This document shows positions 15,846 through 28,175 of a stretch of 64,000 nt of DNA, piece after piece. The notes beneath the pieces are model-generated. The model made no database searches. It was not told the DNA's origin and saw only the letters and a list, made by a program, of their open reading frames with translations. Source of the DNA: Gammaproteobacteria bacterium (GTDB lineage: Bacteria > Pseudomonadota > Gammaproteobacteria > QZLD01). The stretch spans positions 101,393 to 165,392 of the forward strand of contig JAWSVA010000014.1 in the NCBI GenBank assembly GCA_033852155.1, in the 5' to 3' direction. Made by a program: the position numbers and the translations under genes. Within the stretch, counting starts at the first letter, position 1. The number at the start of each line of letters is the position of its first letter.

Positions 15846-16115
15846 TTATTTCTCATAATGATATCTACATGAAATTACAGTGACTTTATCATCATCAACT
15901 GCATAAAGTATACGATTTGCCTCATCAATTCTTCGAGACCAAAAACCAGACAAATTTTCCCTTAAAGGCTCTGGCTTACCAATACCTTCAAATGGACTTC
16001 TCTTAATATCTGTTATCAATTTATTTATTCGTTTGAGTGTTTTCTTATCTTGGGCCTGCCAATATAGATAATCTGACCAAGACTCACTGGTCCAAGCTAA
16101 AATATCAACCATCAA
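15846..16115 (-). CDS. yoeB: Type II toxin YoeB/Txe family (mRNA interferase)
   Basis: WTSESWSDYLYWQAQDKKTLKRINKLITDIKRSPFEGIGKPEPLRENLSGFWSRRIDEANRILYAV matches YoeB almost residue-for-residue. Overlaps the upstream antitoxin gene. Confidence 0.9.
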   Translation of the reverse strand: MMVDILAWTSESWSDYLYWQAQDKKTLKRINKLITDIKRSPFEGIGKPEPLRENLSGFWSRRIDEANRILYAVDDDKVTVISCRYHYEK

Positions 16116-16359
16116 TCAAACCATGCTCTTCTGTCTTTCCAGAACGATACTGCTGTATTGATTTCTCCAAATGAGCAACATTGGCAGAGCTTCTTAGTAA
16201 ATGCACTGTTTCCATAAGACCATTAAACTGGTCCAAAGACATAACTACGGCATCTTCTGAATCACGCCTTGTTATAACAGTGTAATCAGCATCATCAACC
16301 ACCTGATCTAAAACACTTTTTAGATGATTTCTTGCTTCTGAAAAATTAACTACTCTCAT
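16105..16359 (-). CDS. yefM: Type II antitoxin YefM/Phd family
   Basis: MRVVNFSEARNHLKSVLDQVVDDADYTVITRRDSEDAVVMSLDQFNGLMETVHLLRSSANVAHLEKSI is a canonical YefM. 11-nt overlap with yoeB. Confidence 0.9.
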   Translation of the reverse strand: MRVVNFSEARNHLKSVLDQVVDDADYTVITRRDSEDAVVMSLDQFNGLMETVHLLRSSANVAHLEKSIQQYRSGKTEEHGLIDG

Positions 16360-16493
16360 ACATCACCACCCTTTCACTGATAAACATCAGTATAACATGG
16401 TCAATATACTGCACAAGTTAAAACATTAACATTTACGCACGTAAATCAAATGGTTGAATTTTAGGAGCCGAGCTAAACCCTTTCTGAATATTT

Positions 16494-16599
16494 GGGGTCA
16501 GAGTAAAAATAAGCACCTTCAAATGACCAACCTTCTACAGCTCAACAACTTGCAAGCCTTAATTTTACTCTGACCCCAATTATTCGACCCCAATTATTC
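16494..16599. repeat. 15-bp perfect inverted repeat (GGGGTCAGAGTAAAA / TTTTACTCTGACCCC) with a 54-bp spacer, immediately followed by a 14-bp tandem direct repeat (GACCCCAATTATTC x2)
   Basis: Read directly from the sequence, between the yefM start and the DUF2130 gene end. A possible operator, MITE-like or att remnant. Confidence 0.6.
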
Positions 16600-16679
16600 A
16601 AAGTTTGAATTCGAATACCTCAATAAACTGTTATAACACTCTGCCTAAGATGCTAATTTATGCGAAGCGATTTTCACTT

Positions 16680-18113
16680 TCAATCAGATCTCTGGTTTTC
16701 TAATTCATCGAATTTGGCCGCCATTGTAGGGTTTTTTCGTGTCAGCTTCTTGATCGTTACATCCTGTGCTTTGTTGTTTGCAAGGCGCAAGCTCCTATCC
16801 GTTCCAAGCAAGGCGTCCTTCGTTTTCTGCAAGTGGTCGATTGATTTATCAATCTCATCAATTGCTGTTTGAAATTTTCTCGAAGCAAGGTCATAGTTCT
16901 TACCGAATGCAGTTTTAAACATATCGAGGTCGTTTTCAAAGTTTGTTATGTCGACATTCTGCGCTTTTACGAGAGCAAGCTCTGTTTTATATTCTAGTGA
17001 CTTCATTGCTGCATTACGTAGTAGCGTTATGATAGGAAGAAAAAACTGCGGACGAACAATATACATCTTGGGGTAACGGTGGAATACATCTACGATTCCA
17101 GAGTTATATAGTTCGCTTTCTGGCTCTAGCAGAGAAACCAGTACCGCGTATTCACACCCCTTCTCATTGCGATCTTTATCGAGTTCTTTTAAAAATTCTT
17201 CATTCTTTTTCTTTGTTGCAGTCATATCATTTTCGTTCTTCATCTCAAACATGATTGAAACGATTTCTGTACCAGCTTCATCAGAGTCGCGAAAAATATA
17301 GTCGCCCTTACTACCCGTTCTTGCGTCATTATCCTTTTCGAAATAAGCTCTTGGAAACGCAGTTGAACGAATTCTATTGAACTCCGTCTCACAATGCTGC
17401 TCGAGAGTTTCTCCCACCATCTTTGTTGATAGTCGTGCCTTCATATCCCGAAGACGCTCTATCGCATCATCCCGATCCTTAATCTGTGTCTCGTATTTAT
17501 CCTTGAGTGACTTCTCAGACAACTGTTTTTCTAGCTCTGTTTGCTTGAGTCCATTTTTCAGCTCATCACGTTCCTTCTCTATCGCAGTCACCGCCTCAGT
17601 GATGGCTAGCTTCTGCGCGATTTCATTAATATTGAGTTTTGCTTTTAGCTCTTGAATTTCAACGTCTTTTTTTGCAGCAGTCTCCTGTATGTTTTTAGAG
17701 AGTTTTGTCTCAGAAAGTGCTGAAGCAGCTTGGCTTTCTTGCTGCGCTTTTTCTAACTCGTTAGTGAGTGCATCTCGTTCTTTTTCAACAACTCTGAGGG
17801 CTTCGGTGACGGCAAGTTTTTGTGCAACTTCACCTACATCCAATTTCGCTTTAAGCTCTTGAATTTCAGCTTCCTTGCTAGCGGTAGCTTTCTGCATTTC
17901 ACTACCAACTTGGCTTTTTGCTAGTTCAACAGCATTTTTCTTTTCTTCTTCGGCTAGCTTAAGCCGCTCGTGCAATTGTTGCTCAAAATCATTATCGCGA
18001 ACTTGCTTTAGAATATCTGCATAGCCAGTCTCGTCAATTTTGAATGCTTTATCGCAGTGTGGACAGATGATTTCATGCATGTATTTTATTCCTTTTACAG
18101 TATGGTGAGGCAT
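16680..18113 (-). CDS. DUF2130-family protein (N-terminal C4 zinc ribbon plus long coiled coil) with an internal ~50-aa tandem duplication
   Basis: N-terminus [28 protein letters not shown] is the DUF2130 signature. Duplicated unit [48 protein letters not shown] / [48 protein letters not shown]. Confidence 0.75.
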
Positions 18114-18169
18114 GGAGGCACGCTCTACAGGGCCTTGCTGGAGCTATATAGTGAAACTCTAGTCATTAT

Positions 18170-18309
18170 TGAACACTCTGTTTTCTCCAATTATCAACAG
18201 CACTAGACAATCTATCTTCAGGTACTGCATCCAGCCATTCATCCCAGTTACGCCATAGAGCATAGCGGTACTTTCTAAATTTTGAAAATTTAGCTGTGTT
18301 TTTCATATT
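18170..18309 (-). pseudogene. Possible truncated/frameshifted DUF1643-family gene remnant (46-codon ORF)
   Basis: MKNTAKFSKFRKYRYALWRNWDEW resembles the conserved DUF1643 N-terminus (x-C/S-x-K/RYRYsLsRiWDe) as I recall it, then diverges and stops. Not in the ORF track (<60 aa). Confidence 0.3.
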
Positions 18310-18336
18310 TCACCCATTAAAAAATGGTATTTGATA

Positions 18337-18699
18337 TCAGCAATTAAGCTTTCCTGACTTAGATAATACCCACGCTAACCTTTGATCCTCATCCCCCCAT
18401 GTACGATATTCAAGACTACCCCTATGTTTCGGAACTATCTTTGTATCCTTAGGGATTTCAAGAAGGTTTTCACAGCCGTTACTTTGTAGGTAAAGCTTTG
18501 TACAGTCAATACAAAACTCAGCTCTATATATTACTAACCCAATAATATTTTTGGTGAAATCTTTCCATTCTCTATCACTAAAACCAATGAGTGGATTTTG
18601 AATATCATACTGATTTGGATGGGAGCTTATCCACTGCCCATTATAAAGTAACCATTCGCTAGCCCCACAAAGCGTCAATATTAGCAATTTTGCTTGCAT
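18337..18699 (-). CDS. Hypothetical protein (120 aa)
   Basis: ORF with no recognisable motif; sits in the accessory block. Confidence 0.35.
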   Translation of the reverse strand: MQAKLLILTLCGASEWLLYNGQWISSHPNQYDIQNPLIGFSDREWKDFTKNIIGLVIYRAEFCIDCTKLYLQSNGCENLLEIPKDTKIVPKHRGSLEYRTWGDEDQRLAWVLSKSGKLNC

Positions 18700-18975: not shown

Positions 18976-21900
18976 TTAGATAGAGTGTTTTTCAGTCGAG
19001 AAAATTTCTGCCAAAGATTCACCTTGTGCTAACACTCTGTCTGCTTCCAGTTTTGCTAAATCTGGTGGATAACCATAACGCATTAATATTTTCTTTACAG
19101 TCAACCTTAACTTAGCTCGTACATCATCTCTTTTACTCCAATCGACAGTTGCATTTTTTCTGATGACATCCACTATTGTATGAATCAATTCTTTCATCTT
19201 ATTATCATCTAAAAAGCTTGTAGATTTATTTTCGCTTAACACACTATAGAAAGCGTACTCTGCTGATGTTAGCCCAAGTTCTTCAGATTTATGATCTTCC
19301 AAACGCATATCTTTGGCTATTTCTGAAAGTTCTGCTAATACTTGAGCAGAATCTATTTGATTGTTGTGATAACGCTTCACAACAGACTCCAGCATTTCAG
19401 AAAACTTTTTACCTTGCACTAAGTTCTTAGTTTTTCGAATACTAACTTCATCACTTAATAACTTTTTCAGTAATTCAAAAGCAACATGCTTTTGTTGCAT
19501 ATTTTTAACTTCCAATAAAAACTCATTAGATAAAATACTAACTGAAGGACTTTCAATTCCTGCGGCTTCAAATATGTCAATCACACCTTCACTTGAAAGC
19601 GCATCATCCACAATTTGTTTAATGGCAGTTTCTACTTCATAATCTGATTTTACTCCATTGCCTGTAAACTTATTTAGTCGTGCTTTTATCGCTTGAAAGA
19701 AGGATATTTCATCTTTTATTGCTTCTGCATCAGGACTTGGTATTGACATCGCAAAAAGTTTTGATAATAGGGTTACTTCTTTTAAGAAACGTTCCTTTAG
19801 TCTTATATCTGAAAGAATAAAATTTTGAGCACCTAATAGAACTTGTAATTTTTGAGCAGTATCAACGTTAAAGTAGGCTTTATAATCAAAACTGTTAAAC
19901 ATCTGTTCTATGATTTCAAACTTCTCTTTCATTCCTGCAATTGCTTCTTTAATATCTACAACTGGTTCTCCTTCACCACCACTTTGCAAATATGTTGCCA
20001 TTGCATTTCTAAGATCTTGACCAACGCCAAAATAATCAACTACTAATCCACCTGGTTTGTCTTTGTAAACTCTATTTACTCTTGCAATGGCTTGCATCAG
20101 ATTATGACCTTGCATTTTTTTATCTACATACATTGTATGTGTGCTTGGAGCATCAAAACCTGTGAGCCACATATCTCGAACAATTACTAATTTCAGATCG
20201 TCATTAGTATCTTTCATTCGAGTGGCTAAATCTTTCCTTTGTTGTTTGGTGGTATGATGAGGTTGAAATAATTCTGGGTCGTCAGACGAACTTGTCATTA
20301 TTACCTTTATCATTCCTTTATCTAAATCATCATTGTGCCATTCAGGCTTTAGAGCAATAATTTCATTGTATAATTTCACACAAATATTTCGTGTCATTCC
20401 TACAATCATTGCTTTACCTTCAAACACCTCTTGTCTTGCTTCAAAGTGCATTACAATATCTTTGGCAACATCTTTTAATCTGTCAGGATGCCCAACAACT
20501 GCATCAATAGTTGTTGTTTTCTTTTTTGCATTTTCTAGCTGCTCTTCTGTTGCATCAGCAATATTATTTATTTCATCGTCTAATGCTTTAGCTGTTTTTT
20601 CATTCAGTTTAATTTTTACTAAACGAGATTCATAACTAATAGGAACTGTTGCCCCATCATCTACAGCCTGTTTTATATCATAAACATCAATATAATTGCC
20701 AAAAACGGCAGGTGTAGATTTGTCTTCTTTTTCTATGGGTGTACCCGTGAAACCTATGTATGAAGCATTAGGCAAAGCGTCACGCAAATATTTTGCATTC
20801 CCATAGCGGGTTTCCATCCCCTTCTCTGTTTCTACCTCTCGAGCAGTAAAGCCATATTGACTGCGGTGGGCTTCATCTGCTACTACAACAATATTTGTTC
20901 GGTCTGATAAGGTTTCATAAACATTGCCTTCTGCTGGAGCAAATTTTTGAATGGTTGTAAATATTACACCACCGCCCGAAACTTTTAACAGTTCTTTTAT
21001 GTGTACTCTATTATTTGCTTGAACTGGTGTTTGGCGTAAAAGCCCAACACAATTTCCAAATATACCAAAAAGTTGGTCGTCTAAATCATTTCTATCAGTA
21101 AGCATTACAATGGTTGGGTTTCCCATCTGTGGATGCGTAATAATTTGTCCACTATAAAAAACCATTGATAAAGATTTACCCGAACCCTGCGTATGCCAAA
21201 TTACACCAATTTTACGGTCACCATCTTTTGAATGAGTTGCTCTTAAGGTTTGCTTAACTGCTTTTTGGACAGAATAGTATTGATGGTAGGCTGCAACTTT
21301 TTTAATTTTTACTTGTGAAATCAAACCTGTTTTTTCGTCTTTCTTTTCTTCTTGTTCAAATACAGTGCAATAGCGAATTAACTCTATCAATGTTTTTTTA
21401 TTGAGCAAATGTTCGGTTAGAATTTGTAATTCTGTTCTAACTTCTCCTTTTATATTTTCGGGAGATTTCCAAGAAAGGTATCGTGTAAAAGGGGAAGAAA
21501 CACTTGATGTTGATGCATCTATTCCGTCTGAAATTACACAAATAGCATTGTAGTAAAAAATACTTGGAACTGCCTTCTTATAATTTTGAATTTGTGTATA
21601 AGCCTTTCTTAGTGTGGCTTTTTCATCTGAGGCAGATTTAAGCTCAATAAAAACCAAAGGTAAGCCATTTATAAAAATGACCACATCAAATCTTTTCTCG
21701 TTGTTGTTTTCTTTTACTACCAATTGGTTAACTACCCAAAAACTGTTGTTTTCAGGATTTTCAATATCCAACAAGTTTACATTAATTCCTTTTGTCCTTC
21801 CGTCTTTGGTATATTCTACCGTTACACCATTGGTAAGTAATGTATGGAAACGTTCGTTGTTTTCCATTACATCTTCTGTACCGAGATTAATGACCTTTTG

Positions 21901-22113
21901 GTAGGCCTCTACTCGTGCAGATTCGGGGAGTGTGGAATTCAGTTTTTTAAGAGACTGTTTAAAATGGTTTTCTAAGATTATTGAAGATAAGTTTTCACGC
22001 TGTGGATTATCGCTAATTGGTGAAATATCTGTACCGTTAAAATACGTATAACCTTGACTAACTAATTGGACAATTAAAGATTGTTCTATGGTATTTTCGT
22101 TTAATGTATTCAT
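18976..22113 (-). CDS. hsdR: Type I restriction enzyme R subunit (HsdR)
   Basis: 1045 aa. HsdR N-terminal nuclease region, SF2 helicase motifs (GSGKS Walker A, DEAHRSQ motif II), C-terminal HsdR-C region. Last gene of the hsdM-hsdS-x-hsdR operon. Confidence 0.95.
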   Translation of the reverse strand: MNTLNENTIEQSLIVQLVSQGYTYFNGTDISPISDNPQRENLSSIILENHFKQSLKKLNSTLPESARVEAYQKVINLGTEDVMENNERFHTLLTNGVTVEYTKDGRTKGINVNLLDIENPENNSFWVVNQLVVKENNNEKRFDVVIFINGLPLVFIELKSASDEKATLRKAYTQIQNYKKAVPSIFYYNAICVISDGIDASTSSVSSPFTRYLSWKSPENIKGEVRTELQILTEHLLNKKTLIELIRYCTVFEQEEKKDEKTGLISQVKIKKVAAYHQYYSVQKAVKQTLRATHSKDGDRKIGVIWHTQGSGKSLSMVFYSGQIITHPQMGNPTIVMLTDRNDLDDQLFGIFGNCVGLLRQTPVQANNRVHIKELLKVSGGGVIFTTIQKFAPAEGNVYETLSDRTNIVVVADEAHRSQYGFTAREVETEKGMETRYGNAKYLRDALPNASYIGFTGTPIEKEDKSTPAVFGNYIDVYDIKQAVDDGATVPISYESRLVKIKLNEKTAKALDDEINNIADATEEQLENAKKKTTTIDAVVGHPDRLKDVAKDIVMHFEARQEVFEGKAMIVGMTRNICVKLYNEIIALKPEWHNDDLDKGMIKVIMTSSSDDPELFQPHHTTKQQRKDLATRMKDTNDDLKLVIVRDMWLTGFDAPSTHTMYVDKKMQGHNLMQAIARVNRVYKDKPGGLVVDYFGVGQDLRNAMATYLQSGGEGEPVVDIKEAIAGMKEKFEIIEQMFNSFDYKAYFNVDTAQKLQVLLGAQNFILSDIRLKERFLKEVTLLSKLFAMSIPSPDAEAIKDEISFFQAIKARLNKFTGNGVKSDYEVETAIKQIVDDALSSEGVIDIFEAAGIESPSVSILSNEFLLEVKNMQQKHVAFELLKKLLSDEVSIRKTKNLVQGKKFSEMLESVVKRYHNNQIDSAQVLAELSEIAKDMRLEDHKSEELGLTSAEYAFYSVLSENKSTSFLDDNKMKELIHTIVDVIRKNATVDWSKRDDVRAKLRLTVKKILMRYGYPPDLAKLEADRVLAQGESLAEIFSTEKHSI

Positions 22114-22118
22114 AGGCC

Positions 22119-23129
22119 TTATTCAAAATTATCCTTTAAAAAATCAGCAACATCATTCTCTACAAGTTCACTTTTTGCTTTATAGAGTGTGCCTATAAAT
22201 TCTTTTACATCTTCATCTTTAATAATCCACCTGATCATTGCATTTGAAAATGATGCATATAAAATTTTAAGAATTTCATCATCAGAAAAGTAATTGATAA
22301 AAGGTAATAATTGCTCAATTGCATTATGGGTAGAGTCAAAATTTCCTGAAATGATAAGTTGTTCGATATTTTTCAAATAAAGTTCAGGTTTTGAAGTGCT
22401 TATAATTTCACCAGAATCTACTTCAATAATATATTCTTCACCTTCAGTTTTGATAAGTACATTTTGATTGTCATCAATGTTATGCCAGTATTCAACAATA
22501 TTGTCTTTAGTGATAACTACATCAAGTTCAGCATTTACTTTTTCTATAAAATAATCATCAAAGAATTGTGACACGCTTTTTTGTTTAAATTGTTCGTAGG
22601 TTTCTATTACAATAATATTGTGATGATTATTTAAAGCTTCTTTTAACCGACCATCTTTTGCACAAACAAACACATTCTTATTTGGTATTTCTTGTAGATA
22701 TTCAAGAACAGAGAAATAAATTAAAGCATCTTTAAAGCCTTTGTCGGTATTGTCTCCACTTTCAAAAGGGGCTTTTTTGTTTAAAGCTAATTCTTTAATT
22801 TGAGGAAGAACATCATTGTTTTTTAAATCGATCACCTCAAAAGGAATAGATTCGTCATCAAATAGTTTTTGAATATAATCCTCAATACTAAAAGCTTTTG
22901 TATCATCTTCATTAACACCAATTAACCCATGAAATGGGTTTGTTAAAAATTTATCTTTATTACTCGATAATTTTATTATTTTTTGCCTTTTAATTTCTTG
23001 AATTACCGTTTCTGGTATTACAATATCAGCATCTTGTAGAAAGCGTTCTAACTCCACTCTGCCACCTAAAAAATTATTGGCATTAGTGTTATGTACAATA
23101 TTGGTATCAAAGATTACTTTTTCTTTCAT
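22119..23129 (-). CDS. PIN-like domain protein (DUF4935-like) embedded between hsdS and hsdR; candidate defence accessory gene
   Basis: N-terminus KVIFDTNIV (PIN Asp-1 motif), TVIQEIK, TDKGFKDALIYFS and CAKDGRL supply the remaining acidic residues in PIN-like spacing. The C-terminal ~170 aa is an unknown domain. Overlaps hsdS (ATGA) and lies 6 nt from hsdR. Confidence 0.6.
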   Translation of the reverse strand: MKEKVIFDTNIVHNTNANNFLGGRVELERFLQDADIVIPETVIQEIKRQKIIKLSSNKDKFLTNPFHGLIGVNEDDTKAFSIEDYIQKLFDDESIPFEVIDLKNNDVLPQIKELALNKKAPFESGDNTDKGFKDALIYFSVLEYLQEIPNKNVFVCAKDGRLKEALNNHHNIIVIETYEQFKQKSVSQFFDDYFIEKVNAELDVVITKDNIVEYWHNIDDNQNVLIKTEGEEYIIEVDSGEIISTSKPELYLKNIEQLIISGNFDSTHNAIEQLLPFINYFSDDEILKILYASFSNAMIRWIIKDEDVKEFIGTLYKAKSELVENDVADFLKDNFE

Positions 23130-24322
23130 ACTTCATTCTCTTTAAAATCATTAACACGTAATTTCCCACTCATTAATTTTGGTAATAATGTATCTCGTGC
23201 TTGTTTTAGGGTTTGGATTTGGGTTGCATTGTTAAATATTTTATTGAATATTGGTTTAACTAGTTCATCAAAGTTTTTCATTACTGACTCTGAAGGAATT
23301 AACGTTTCGTAGAATCTTAAAATATCTGTTTTCAAATTTACAAATACGCTTCCACTTCCTTGTTGAACTAACTTAGGTCTTATATCAAGAAACAGTAAGT
23401 AGAGGTATTCATTTGATACTTTTGAACTTGGGAAATGCATCCAACCATCATGGACACATGTATCAACAGCTAAAAATTTTGGCATTCCAGGTGTAGCACT
23501 ATTTGACAAAACTATATCGCCTTTCTTTTTAAGTATTGTTTTTCTTAAACCTTCAACTTTTATATGCTCCTTTATATCAAATATATAAGGAGAGCTAGTT
23601 GCTGTAGCATCAGAAATTTTCAACCATCTATATCCACAATCTGAGATAAACTCTTTTATAGGCCGTGGTGAACCACCACGTTTTATTTCTGTCAAATCAC
23701 CAATTTTCCCAACTCTCCATCCATCAGGAAATTCATCACCAATTTGGTATTTACCAAACCACTCTTTAAAAATAGTTTGTGCGGTGGTTTCTAGGGTTTT
23801 GTTTTGGGCTTGTAGGAGTTCTATCTTATCATCAAAAGATGTTAGTACGGCGGCTATGGCTTTTTGTTCTGGTAATGATGGAAGATTAATTTCAATATTC
23901 TCTAATTGATTTTTTGAAATATTTGGAAAAGTAGAACCTGTTGCTTCCGCTAATAAACCTTGTAATTTATAATCTAAAATACCTTTTATGTATTTTCTAA
24001 ATTCCACCCCTTCTTTGTGTCTAACACTTGCAAGTCCTCTACCAATAACATATTGTTGATTAGACCAATTCATTCTGCCTGTTGTAGAGCCTCTAACACA
24101 AAAAAGTAAATCGTTTATTTTGCTTATCTTTTTAGGAGCAGTGGTAAACTGTACAGGGATTGGTGATGTTACTCCAAATTCAGTAGGTCCATTCAATAGT
24201 GGTAATCCCGTTCCATTCTCATTACAAGTATCACCTTTGGGAGATTGTCCCATAATTATCTCAGAAACCTCTCCCAGGGTCGTTTTCACCCAACCATTTG
24301 GTATATTATTCGCAACATTCAT
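23126..24322 (-). CDS. hsdS: Type I restriction-modification specificity subunit (HsdS), two target-recognition domains
   Basis: 398 aa with duplicated TRD/conserved-region layout (LPSLPEQKAIAAVL central repeat, C-terminal LKQARDTLLPKLMSG); overlaps hsdM. Confidence 0.9.
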   Translation of the reverse strand: MNVANNIPNGWVKTTLGEVSEIIMGQSPKGDTCNENGTGLPLLNGPTEFGVTSPIPVQFTTAPKKISKINDLLFCVRGSTTGRMNWSNQQYVIGRGLASVRHKEGVEFRKYIKGILDYKLQGLLAEATGSTFPNISKNQLENIEINLPSLPEQKAIAAVLTSFDDKIELLQAQNKTLETTAQTIFKEWFGKYQIGDEFPDGWRVGKIGDLTEIKRGGSPRPIKEFISDCGYRWLKISDATATSSPYIFDIKEHIKVEGLRKTILKKKGDIVLSNSATPGMPKFLAVDTCVHDGWMHFPSSKVSNEYLYLLFLDIRPKLVQQGSGSVFVNLKTDILRFYETLIPSESVMKNFDELVKPIFNKIFNNATQIQTLKQARDTLLPKLMSGKLRVNDFKENEV

Positions 24323-26412: not shown

Positions 26413-26500
26413 TGGCGGACAGGGAGGGATTCGAACCCTCGGTACGTTACCGTACACACACTTTCCAGGCGTGCTCTTTCGGCCACTCAGACACCTGTCC
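26413..26500 (-). tRNA. tRNA-Ser (anticodon GGA), class II with long variable arm, CCA encoded
   Basis: Reverse complement folds as GGACAGG-TG-...-CACGC-CU[GGA]AA-GUGUG-long variable arm (UGUACGGUAACGUACC)-GAGGG-TTCGAAT-CCCTC-CCTGTCC-G-CCA. Its 3' end faces the hsd block. Confidence 0.9.
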
Positions 26501-26762: not shown

Positions 26763-27458
26763 ATGGTTCTTCAATATGATTGTTCATCAAATGATGTTAT
26801 TTCATTGATTGAAAATGCAAATAAGGATGAGAGATCTTGTTTGCTACGCTCATTAGGGATTGAAGAGGACATCACAAAGGATTTTAGTGAGACCATATTC
26901 AGCACACTAAGCAGGGAAGCTAGTCATTCTATAGGGAGGTTGGTGAGAAGGGGAAACGGAATTCCTTACTGGATGGTTGTTCATAACACAGCTAAATTTC
27001 TTAAAGCCAATTCCTATGAACGCGACGAAAGTTGGGTTCAGCGTAATTACCAAATTCTGGAGCGTAATATTTTTGATATGGTATTTCGCACTTTTTTATA
27101 CTCAATTCCAGAAGAAAAACGTGAAAAATTGGAAGATAGTTTATCAACAGTTGGCAACACTCTATTACGCTCCACGGATAAGAATAACTCCCAAGTTGCT
27201 GCTGTCTCATCTCTTGGGTTGGGCAGTACATCACTACTAGCGATTATCGGCAGTTCTATTGGTCCAACTATCGCACCTCTTTGGCTTTTAGCATTGAGTG
27301 CGCTCACGGTTAAAAGGTATAAGGCCTCTAAATATATAAAAATAATTCCATTTATATCTGTCATTGCATCAATACGCCAAAGGCTTGAATCAAATGGCAT
27401 GGTTGATAGCGACTACCACTTGGAACAAGAACAAATCCAAGTTAGATCTGGTTTTTGA
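26763..27458 (+). CDS. Hypothetical protein with C-terminal pair of TM helices (231 aa)
   Basis: Soluble N-terminal ~150 aa, then LGLGSTSLLAIIGSSIGPTIAPLWLLALSALTV (two hydrophobic helices). No recognisable family. Confidence 0.5.
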   Translation: MVLQYDCSSNDVISLIENANKDERSCLLRSLGIEEDITKDFSETIFSTLSREASHSIGRLVRRGNGIPYWMVVHNTAKFLKANSYERDESWVQRNYQILERNIFDMVFRTFLYSIPEEKREKLEDSLSTVGNTLLRSTDKNNSQVAAVSSLGLGSTSLLAIIGSSIGPTIAPLWLLALSALTVKRYKASKYIKIIPFISVIASIRQRLESNGMVDSDYHLEQEQIQVRSGF

Positions 27459-27470
27459 TTAAGGAATAAT

Positions 27471-28175
27471 ATGCAATTAGCAAACTTACGCGTCCCTAAA
27501 TTTAATAATGATTCAATTCGAGAAGAGTTACGCGGGGTATTACTTGAAAAAGCACCAATAATGATGCAGAACAGTAAAAATTTAGCGGATGAGTTGCTAG
27601 GATGTATTGGCGTAATGGTTGGTGCGGATGGAGAGCTATGTAATATAATTGCCCGCCAAATTAGAAGAAACTTTCATAAATCATGGTCACAACTATGTGC
27701 AGAAGAGTGGATGATGTTTGATGAATTACAGCCATCTTCATCTAAATATTTAAGGGATATAATAAAGGTAAATATTAAGAATAAATTTGCCAAGTTTTTT
27801 GTAGTTCAGGATAACTTCTATTCACCTATTAAGAATAACTTTTTATGCCACATAATCGATACCCTATGTGGAGCTGTAGGCAGCATAGAGACAAGATTTG
27901 GAGGGGATACCCCTCTGATTGAGACTATAAATTATATTAAAAATGGGGATATTCGCGAAGCGGTAAATCAGTTATTACTTGCGTATGATTTATATGGAGA
28001 GGTTTTAGAAACAGAGTGTTGCAAAGAGCAGCTCATCGACGAAATTGATTATCAAATCAAAGCAACAGATGAACTGCAGCAGCATGAATCAGTTTTCGCA
28101 CAGGGAGCTTCAGTGCGATATAGGAAGACCTTGAAGGATCTGAGGTCAAGACTTGAAGTCTTGCAGGGAAATTAA
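27471..28175 (+). CDS. Hypothetical protein (234 aa), operonic with the preceding gene
   Basis: 12-nt gap from the upstream ORF; no recognisable domain; several Cys (CAEEW, CHIIDTLCGAVG, ECCKEQ). Confidence 0.5.
   Translation: MQLANLRVPKFNNDSIREELRGVLLEKAPIMMQNSKNLADELLGCIGVMVGADGELCNIIARQIRRNFHKSWSQLCAEEWMMFDELQPSSSKYLRDIIKVNIKNKFAKFFVVQDNFYSPIKNNFLCHIIDTLCGAVGSIETRFGGDTPLIETINYIKNGDIREAVNQLLLAYDLYGEVLETECCKEQLIDEIDYQIKATDELQQHESVFAQGASVRYRKTLKDLRSRLEVLQGN

Follow-up and report, generated by a model that had tools for sequence, protein, structure and literature searches.

To our knowledge, few systems punish phages for disabling restriction, namely PrrC, PARIS, some retrons, Ronin and EcoR22I, and each of them has added to the understanding of how bacteria protect their first line of immunity. 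The genes of the prr locus follow the order prrA(hsdM)-prrB(hsdS)-prrC-prrD(hsdR), and EcoprrI keeps PrrC silent until the Stp peptide of phage T4 unleashes it. PrrC is almost exclusively embedded in type I restriction-modification (R-M) systems (Payne et al., bioRxiv 10.1101/2024.01.29.577857). RonA, the effector of the Ronin system of E. coli ECOR55, kills when produced by itself; HsdMS neutralises it, and ArdA, Ocr or Aop1 set it off (bioRxiv 10.1101/2023.04.06.535777). Here, we analyse a gene, hereafter X, carried by a stretch of 64,000 nucleotides of the genome of a gammaproteobacterium (assembly GCA_033852155.1, contig JAWSVA010000014.1, positions 101,393 to 165,392), the whole of which is referred to as the window. 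X is located in the hsdS-hsdR interval of a type I R-M operon, and its relatives were found in no other place, although the operon family often does without them. We give a probability of roughly 0.45 to the reading in which X is a latent PIN RNase serving as a back-up to the R-M system, under the control of its C-terminal module or of the Hsd proteins.

On this reading X would, like PrrC, be a latent RNase encoded in a type I R-M operon for which it is optional, and the prr gene order puts both genes in the same slot. The two proteins are nevertheless built differently, PrrC being an ABC-ATPase fused to an anticodon-nuclease domain, whereas X joins a PIN_12 domain to an unrelated C-terminal module; X has no match to PrrC or RloC in PADLOC and no ATPase domain in Pfam. 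Silencing by R-M and a phage trigger were demonstrated for PrrC and are proposed by analogy for X, and the window HsdR is only distantly related to the type IC HsdR of EcoR124, which at only ~118 bits is its closest match of solved structure. With Ronin, X shares the tight linkage of an effector gene to hsdS and hsdM, and the guard mechanism of Ronin is the one proposed for X. However, RonA is a 61-residue membrane peptide from a system without hsdR, whereas X is a predicted soluble nuclease of 336 residues with hsdR downstream of it in the window and in all 34 related loci where this could be checked.

Occurrence of gene X and content of the hsdS-hsdR junction

A context-blind scan of one genome per species (185,579 species) returned 30 X loci, distributed over Desulfobacterales, Bacteroidota, Gammaproteobacteria, Campylobacterota, Thermotogaceae and metagenome-assembled genomes (MAGs) of the Patescibacteria group. 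Together with X-bearing metagenome loci, these form a set of 35 loci, to which two remote loci are added; identities span 27-92% with the remote loci included. Wherever the upstream flank was available, X was preceded on the same strand by hsdS or by an hsdM-hsdS fusion (33/33 loci), at a distance of -14 to +24 nt from hsdS in 29 of these 33. Downstream, an hsdR of the same architecture followed on the same strand in 34 of the 34 loci with sequence on that side, and was located by tblastn in L007, L016, L017 and L020; the gap between X and hsdR was at most 27 nt in 20 of them, and other cargo lay between the two genes in the remaining 14. The remote loci encode two relatives of P0268, a protein 27% identical to X, and are flanked by an hsdS fragment and by the same type of hsdR. 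In both, the gene directly after hsdR codes for a protein with DUF8426 and NucS_C domains (L111:4702-5589 and L112:7032-7675), perhaps a further partner that recurs with this R-M family. Phage records, IMG/VR viral contigs and PLSDB plasmids gave no match to X.

The initial annotation had seen in X a candidate abortive-infection or anti-restriction-evasion module, an idea with which its neighbourhood agrees: X did not fall in a housekeeping family, and its homologues sit in the hsdS-hsdR slot, and only there, in all 35 loci and the two remote ones where flanks reach. X thus displays the embedding in type I R-M that is typical of PrrC. No paper on the X family was found in the literature, and its members are annotated only as 'PIN domain-containing' or 'DUF4935'. 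PADLOC called MTase_I, Specificity_I and REase_I in the operon; X itself was left uncalled, with a partial match to the candidate model PDC-S34.

The converse does not hold for the operon. A metagenome scan seeded with the window HsdR yielded 79 loci, 45 of which are informative for the hsdS-hsdR interval. X occupies it in 8, hsdS overlaps or abuts hsdR with nothing in between in 17, and a gap without X, mostly filled by other cargo, is found in 20; L067 also carries X and was left out of the 8, as the contig end cuts its hsdS. Since X is always in the slot while just 8 of 45 HsdR-seeded loci contain it, the R-M system does not need X, yet X is found only inside it. The other cargo of these loci comprises RhuM, GmrSD-type enzymes, McrBC, ApeA (HEPN), an HTH protein with Fic, DUF3800, AAA_14/DUF4143, YhcG and IS200-type transposases, and the extra cargo that adjoins X in the X-seeded loci comprises GmrSD, Kiwa KwaB, McrBC, PDDEXK_4, RhuM and DUF3800. 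Slot open reading frames (ORFs) without annotation were also seen (L005-L030 and L033-L087), including a 163-residue partner of DUF3800 and a 217-residue protein in L064. The hsdS-hsdR junction of this R-M family is a hot spot for defence cargo. That type I R-M operons host defence genes, as the initial annotation stated, is thus borne out by the GmrSD, McrBC, Kiwa, ApeA and Fic proteins in the slot of related operons.

The cargo of this junction changes readily. On a tree of HsdR with 45 tips, the presence of X changes at least 6 times; two loci whose HsdR N-terminal regions are 98% identical hold X (L065) and unrelated cargo (L064), and HsdR proteins 86-98% identical come from loci in which hsdS abuts hsdR or in which the slot holds unrelated cargo. 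Regardless of the cargo, DNA identity remains at 56-89%, and mostly at 70% or more, over the final 120 nt of hsdS and the initial 150 nt of hsdR, which makes these flanks plausible substrates for the exchange of cassettes. The initial annotation had described X as inserted in the operon; it is indeed embedded there, but is better read as optional, exchangeable cargo, given that close relatives of the window hsdR often lack it.

This composition of the slot bears on a reading that we consider doubtful, in which X is an independent single-gene defence nuclease, sensing phages by itself through its C-terminal module, and the hsd operon only a landing pad and expression platform. The slot is a general hot spot that also receives autonomous systems (GmrSD, McrBC, ApeA and Kiwa), X is exchangeable on the HsdR tree, hhalign detects no sequence sign of docking onto an Hsd subunit, the C-terminal part is fast-evolving and mosaic like many sensor domains, and Cosus, a stand-alone PIN_12 protein described below, defends alone. 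However, autonomous systems are mostly located outside R-M, with single embedded instances of several systems against hundreds to thousands of non-embedded homologues in the counts of Payne et al. (bioRxiv 10.1101/2024.01.29.577857), whereas X-type proteins were never found outside the slot over the whole identity range of the 35 loci and the two remote ones, and those paralogues that do stand alone have another C-terminus.

The PIN domain, the C-terminal module and their evolution

Residues 5-157 of X match Pfam PIN_12 (PF16289, formerly DUF4935) over profile positions 1-167 of 172, with a score of 45.8 bits against a gathering cut-off of 32 (E 1.2e-11), so that the PIN/DUF4935 affiliation proposed in the initial annotation stands; Pfam also gave a weaker match to PIN_4. 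Conservation was computed over 191 full-length homologues that reach down to ~28% identity. D8, T9, N10, P39, E45, P121, F122, D129, K133, D134 and D159 are 95-100% conserved, and this set includes the acidic residues that a PIN active site should have, which would be D8 (98%), E45 (100%), D129 (100%), D134 (100%) and D159 (99%). All four motifs that had been picked out from the translation (VIFDTNIV, ETVIQEIK, TDKGFKDA and CAKDGRL) are present, with key residues conserved at 98-100%: D8 lies in FDTN, E45 in IQEIK, D129 and D134 in TDKGFKDA, and D159 in AKDGRL. Neither NCBIfam, PHROGs nor PDB sequences gave a match to X, and a profile built from the family alignment retrieved only a marginal PIN match among PDB sequences (3i8o, E 0.26). 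The AlphaFold2 (AF2) model of the whole protein has a mean predicted local distance difference test score (pLDDT) of 88.9. Its N-terminal domain has VapC-type PIN proteins as its best Foldseek matches (2fe1, probability 0.99; 5h4g, 1y82, 1v96 and 3zvk), nearest to the toxins PAE0151, P. horikoshii VapC4 and R. felis VapC2, and is thus predicted to adopt a VapC-like alpha/beta/alpha PIN fold. Within the VapC-like PIN_12 group, X is most probably a functional PIN nuclease that depends on metal, with endoribonuclease as the predicted activity.

A PIN_12 protein has already been linked to phage defence. Cosus (Brc24), a PIN12 protein from an integron cassette, protects E. coli from T7, and its T12A, D14A and D96A mutants lose most of this protection (bioRxiv 10.1101/2024.07.02.601719); as these are residues of the PIN domain, a PIN_12 nuclease can be an anti-phage effector. 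Cosus and X have a PIN_12-type domain in common according to the domain assignment of that paper. They differ in that Cosus is a stand-alone integron cassette rather than an R-M-embedded gene, and the spacing of its catalytic residues suggests another architecture than that of X.

X and the VapBC toxins share the VapC-like PIN fold with a site of four acidic residues, but X, at over twice the size of VapC, carries an additional C-terminal module. No VapB-type antitoxin gene lies next to X, which has hsdS upstream, hsdR downstream and no small co-oriented ORF. The control of X must therefore come from elsewhere. We consider quite improbable the proposal that X is a selfish addiction or stabilisation toxin of the VapC kind, with an Hsd subunit or its own C-terminal domain as the antidote, that would keep the R-M cassette or an island in place and would not be directed at phages. 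In its favour, besides the fold, stand the AT-richness of the cassette, its clear horizontal spread across phyla, and its position near a tRNA gene and a YefM/YoeB module. With 27.6% GC, X is the lowest point of its region (window 22000-22999), and in all 23 loci compared it is the AT-richest cassette gene (mean 27.7% GC; hsdM 37%, hsdR 35%), the GC content of the cassette being similarly low in hosts of different phyla. Against the proposal speak the lack of an antitoxin gene, the equally wide distribution of type I R-M cassettes without X, and the frequent loss or replacement of X, which is hard to reconcile with effective addiction.

For the C-terminal half, searches of Pfam, NCBIfam, PHROGs and PDB sequences returned no match, in line with the initial annotation, which had recognised nothing in the last ~170 residues. 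This half is predicted to form a compact module: AF2 modelling of residues 186-336 by themselves gave a pLDDT of 95.8 and a predicted template modelling score (pTM) of 0.88, with a linker helix, a four-stranded sheet (211-246) and a helical bundle (252-335). Structure searches with this model found no match in the PDB (best E 0.13) and none among the viral predicted structures of BFVD. The sole match of any kind is the partial one to PDC-S34, which pairs X residues 254-330 with profile positions 306-381 of 384 (E 3e-8). This PADLOC model is also matched by 71 of 95 distant X homologues, with a family-wide best E of only 3e-15; in ten distant homologues inspected one by one, all matches fall within profile positions 223-381, and the first ~220 positions have no counterpart in X or in these ten. 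X and PDC-S34 thus possess a homologous C-terminal module, and since the match is confined to the C-terminal profile positions, without a full-length match, X is not a member of PDC-S34. The PDC entries of PADLOC, of which PDC-S34 is one, are themselves candidates, picked by Payne et al. for lying within BREX, DISARM or type I R-M loci (bioRxiv 10.1101/2024.01.29.577857).

A broader proposal on the module, which we judge unlikely as a whole, can be made: it would be a dedicated adaptor, common to X and PDC-S34, that docks effectors onto the methyltransferase core of type I R-M systems or senses its state. X would then represent a class of modular guard toxins of R-M systems, separate from PrrC and RonA, held by HsdMS and freed when DNA mimics of the Ocr/ArdA type occupy the complex. 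The idea that the module mimics the C-terminal docking domain of HsdR was dropped, hhalign against the HsdR alignment giving a probability below 1%. A lead to PD-T7-3, a weak match in three distant homologues, was also dropped, the papers containing no domain information. As a separate observation, the C-terminal helical region of the window HsdR (residues 913-1027; window 18976-19374) is matched by two PDC-S15 models of PADLOC (E 6e-10 and 3e-6). A domain resembling the HsdR C-terminus, which could serve as a docking module, therefore seems to be present in some single-gene R-M-embedded candidates.

The architecture of X resembles that of PIN_12/DUF4935 proteins in general, described as an N-terminal PIN domain with conserved acidic residues followed by an uncharacterised alpha/beta C-terminal region, which Matelska et al. 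noted to resemble nothing known (PMC5499597). The 336-residue subfamily to which X belongs is, however, always operonic in type I R-M. The 'mono-cistron' remark of the same authors (PMC5499597) fits another set of PIN_12 paralogues, of 430-443 residues, which are stand-alone genes located outside R-M operons, in variable regions: in polysaccharide loci, beside AAA_21/RloB genes, or beside a toxin-antitoxin pair. These paralogues have the N-terminal PIN domain in common with X and differ in their C-terminus, which suggests that what is specific to the R-M-embedded subfamily is its C-terminal module. One stand-alone paralogue, of 430 residues, lies inside a polysaccharide locus between an AAA_21 ATPase gene and an AAA_21 and RloB pair (L115:4465-9506), an arrangement that looks like a small defence cluster.

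A protein database search returned 353 homologues of X at E <= 0.001; among the 120 listed, nearly all measure 333-343 residues and align end to end. An exhaustive search of representatives at 50% identity gave 387 clusters at the same threshold, the full-length architecture being kept down to ~27% identity. Between close pairs, the ratio of nonsynonymous to synonymous substitution rates (dN/dS) is ~0.08 for residues 1-185, 0.09 for residues 186-250 and 0.12 for residues 251-336: gene X is real and under purifying selection. In three MAG loci where X is fragmented under translation table 11, it reads through under genetic code 25 (UGA = Gly), with the exceptions of a single stop left in L028 and the stop at the end in L029; one of the UGA codons sits on the invariant glycine of TDKGFKD. 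Both hsdM and hsdR also look fragmented under table 11 in these loci. The lowest GC content of the region and the lack of a known function are what could be said for a decaying or functionless hitch-hiker ORF, an extremely improbable reading that is effectively refuted by dN/dS values of ~0.1, invariant catalytic residues, a confident AF2 model and the readthrough in code-25 hosts.

X evolves much faster than its operon partners, with a mean identity of 52% compared with about 80% for HsdM and HsdR from the same loci. Identity is highest in the PIN domain (59%) and lowest in the helical bundle (42%); of the whole protein the C-terminal module evolves fastest, with a mosaic pattern among homologues. 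P0018 is 82% identical to the window protein in its N-terminal part and 36% in its C-terminal part; conversely, P0114, from a Candidatus Thioglobus MAG (L016, 125-1126), is 49% identical in the N-terminal part and 78% in the C-terminal bundle, and probably has a recombination breakpoint inside its X gene. The HsdR adjoining this mosaic gene is 89% identical to that of the window. In mirror-tree comparisons, the Spearman correlation of distances was 0.64 between X and HsdR and 0.68 between HsdM and HsdR, and X distances showed no correlation with HsdS. As such a result is compatible with simple linkage, no evidence of interaction is taken from it.

The similarity of these two coefficients, the strict co-orientation of X and its translational coupling between hsdS and hsdR could indicate that X serves the R-M system itself as an accessory or regulatory nuclease. 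It would then be either an RNase trimming the polycistronic hsd message, and thereby setting the HsdR:HsdMS ratio (to control establishment or the alleviation of restriction), or a DNA nuclease processing the DNA that HsdR translocates; some members of the PIN-like superfamily do act on DNA (PMC5499597). This role is improbable in view of the very close R-M backbones that lack X (those with HsdR 86-98% identical), of the pace at which X diverges relative to HsdM and HsdR, and of the 14 loci in which other cargo separates X from hsdR.

Layout of the operon and its surroundings in the window

The four genes of the operon are arranged on the minus strand in the order hsdM-hsdS-X-hsdR, with intact, co-oriented hsd genes that have full-length matches in Pfam, PADLOC and NCBIfam (Table 1). 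The X frame opens with ATG and closes with TAA. The initial annotation had placed a 336-residue ORF within a type I R-M operon, which agrees with both the coordinates and the Pfam/PADLOC matches. The hsdM and hsdS genes overlap by 4 nt. The reported ATGA overlap of hsdS and X is likewise there, and may couple the start of X translation to the hsdS stop. On the other side, the gap to hsdR had been given as 6 nt; the spacer between the X stop and the hsdR ATG (22113) is in fact 5 nt (22114-22118), and a Shine-Dalgarno-like AAGG (22117-22120) overlaps the X stop codon.

Table 1. Features of the hsdM-hsdS-X-hsdR operon of the window, with loci of other genomes mentioned in the text.
Feature	Position	Strand	Evidence or remark
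hsdR, restriction/translocase subunit, 1045 aa	18976-22113	-	Pfam HSDR_N, SWI2_SNF2, T1R_D3-like, T1RH-like_C; PADLOC REase_I 1184 bits; TIGR00348
X stop codon TAA and 5-nt spacer before hsdR ATG	22114-22121	-	Read from sequence
Gene X, PIN_12 protein, 336 aa	22119-23129	-	ORF, PIN_12 match, homologues, dN/dS, AF2 model
C-terminal module of X, residues 186-336	22122-22574	-	AF2 model of the module by itself
N-terminal PIN domain of X, residues 1-185, putative catalytic D8, E45, D129, D134, D159	22575-23129	-	Pfam, conservation, Foldseek
ATGA overlap, bases common to hsdS stop and X start	23126-23129	-	Read from sequence
hsdS, specificity subunit, 398 aa, two target-recognition domains	23126-24322	-	Pfam Methylase_S, 2 stretches; PADLOC Specificity_I 8.7e-70
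hsdM, methyltransferase subunit, 502 aa	24319-25827	-	Pfam N6_Mtase 3.5e-111 and HsdM_N; PADLOC MTase_I 7e-198
tRNA-Ser(GGA)	26413-26500	-	ARAGORN and Rfam; 586 nt upstream of hsdM
X loci read with code 25	L024:6594-7620, L028:4853-5900, L029:8001-9010		Two labelled Patescibacteria-group, one unclassified bacterium
hsdM-hsdS fusions followed by X	L004:5691-7976, L012:5815-8004, L035:3-1577, L103:791-2965		Single ORF matching HsdM and HsdS

A non-coding stretch of ~590 nt separates hsdM from the tRNA-Ser gene, which may be the integration site or the boundary of a genomic island; an att-like direct repeat of the 3' end of this tRNA gene was sought between 13.5 and 26.6 kb, and none was found. 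Beyond the tRNA gene (26763-28175, plus strand), two adjacent ORFs of 231 and 234 residues have no match in Pfam, NCBIfam or PHROGs. Downstream of hsdR and on the same strand (15846-18699, minus) lie a 120-residue ORF without family match, a gene for a 477-residue DUF2130 protein and the YefM/YoeB toxin-antitoxin pair, an arrangement also present in L001, where X and the Hsd proteins are identical to those of the window. Ordinary chromosomal genes follow beyond YefM/YoeB (ABC transporter, phosphoenolpyruvate synthase, hybrid histidine kinase and alpha-2-macroglobulin).

A proposed latent nuclease behind restriction

X is a fourth gene that one family of type I R-M operons can carry or lack, and in the back-up role that we favour for it, it would be expressed from the same message as HsdM, HsdS and HsdR. 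In uninfected cells, the Hsd complex, or else the C-terminal module of X itself, would keep the nuclease silent. Interference of a phage with the R-M complex, for instance by a DNA-mimic anti-restriction protein, or escape of the phage from restriction, would act as the trigger; the released nuclease would then cut an essential RNA, whereupon translation and phage production would stop. X would thereby act as a second-line effector of the abortive-infection type, in the manner of PrrC with EcoprrI or of RonA in Ronin. The RNA substrate, the toxicity, the silencing by Hsd proteins and the trigger of this scheme are those suggested by the genomic context and by the published analogues. The scheme is favoured on account of the asymmetric dependence, X needing the R-M context while the R-M system does not need X, which is also a property of PrrC and RonA, and on account of the precedent of Cosus.

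Several observations weigh against this back-up role. The structural matches of the PIN domain to VapC proteins are weak (E 0.01-0.2, template modelling score about 0.5-0.57 on the target), and the RNA target is an assumption, as PIN-like domains can also cut DNA. Comparison of the C-terminal module with alignments of HsdR, HsdM and HsdS by hhalign returned probabilities below 1% and thus no sign of docking by mimicry, and the evolutionary distances of the C-terminal part do not follow those of HsdS and follow those of HsdM only weakly. Finally, the conserved flanks imply that promoter-less cargo could spread by flank-mediated exchange only, so that the confinement of X may be mechanical; its exclusivity could partly reflect this mode of spread alone.

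R-M-embedded back-up toxins were known before; X is set apart by its strict confinement to the hsdS-hsdR junction and by its confidently folded, unmatched C-terminal module. The X family is not called by PADLOC models, and methods based on enrichment in defence islands would miss it too. The clean asymmetry between X, always in the R-M operon, and the operon, often without X, makes the dependence directly testable. If the back-up role is true, a PIN-RNase effector would occupy the classical PrrC slot in hosts as diverse as Bacteroidota, Gammaproteobacteria, Desulfobacterales, Campylobacterota, Thermotogaceae and Patescibacteria-type MAGs, and its C-terminal module, a confident fold without structural match in the searched libraries, may be what couples the effector to the R-M complex.

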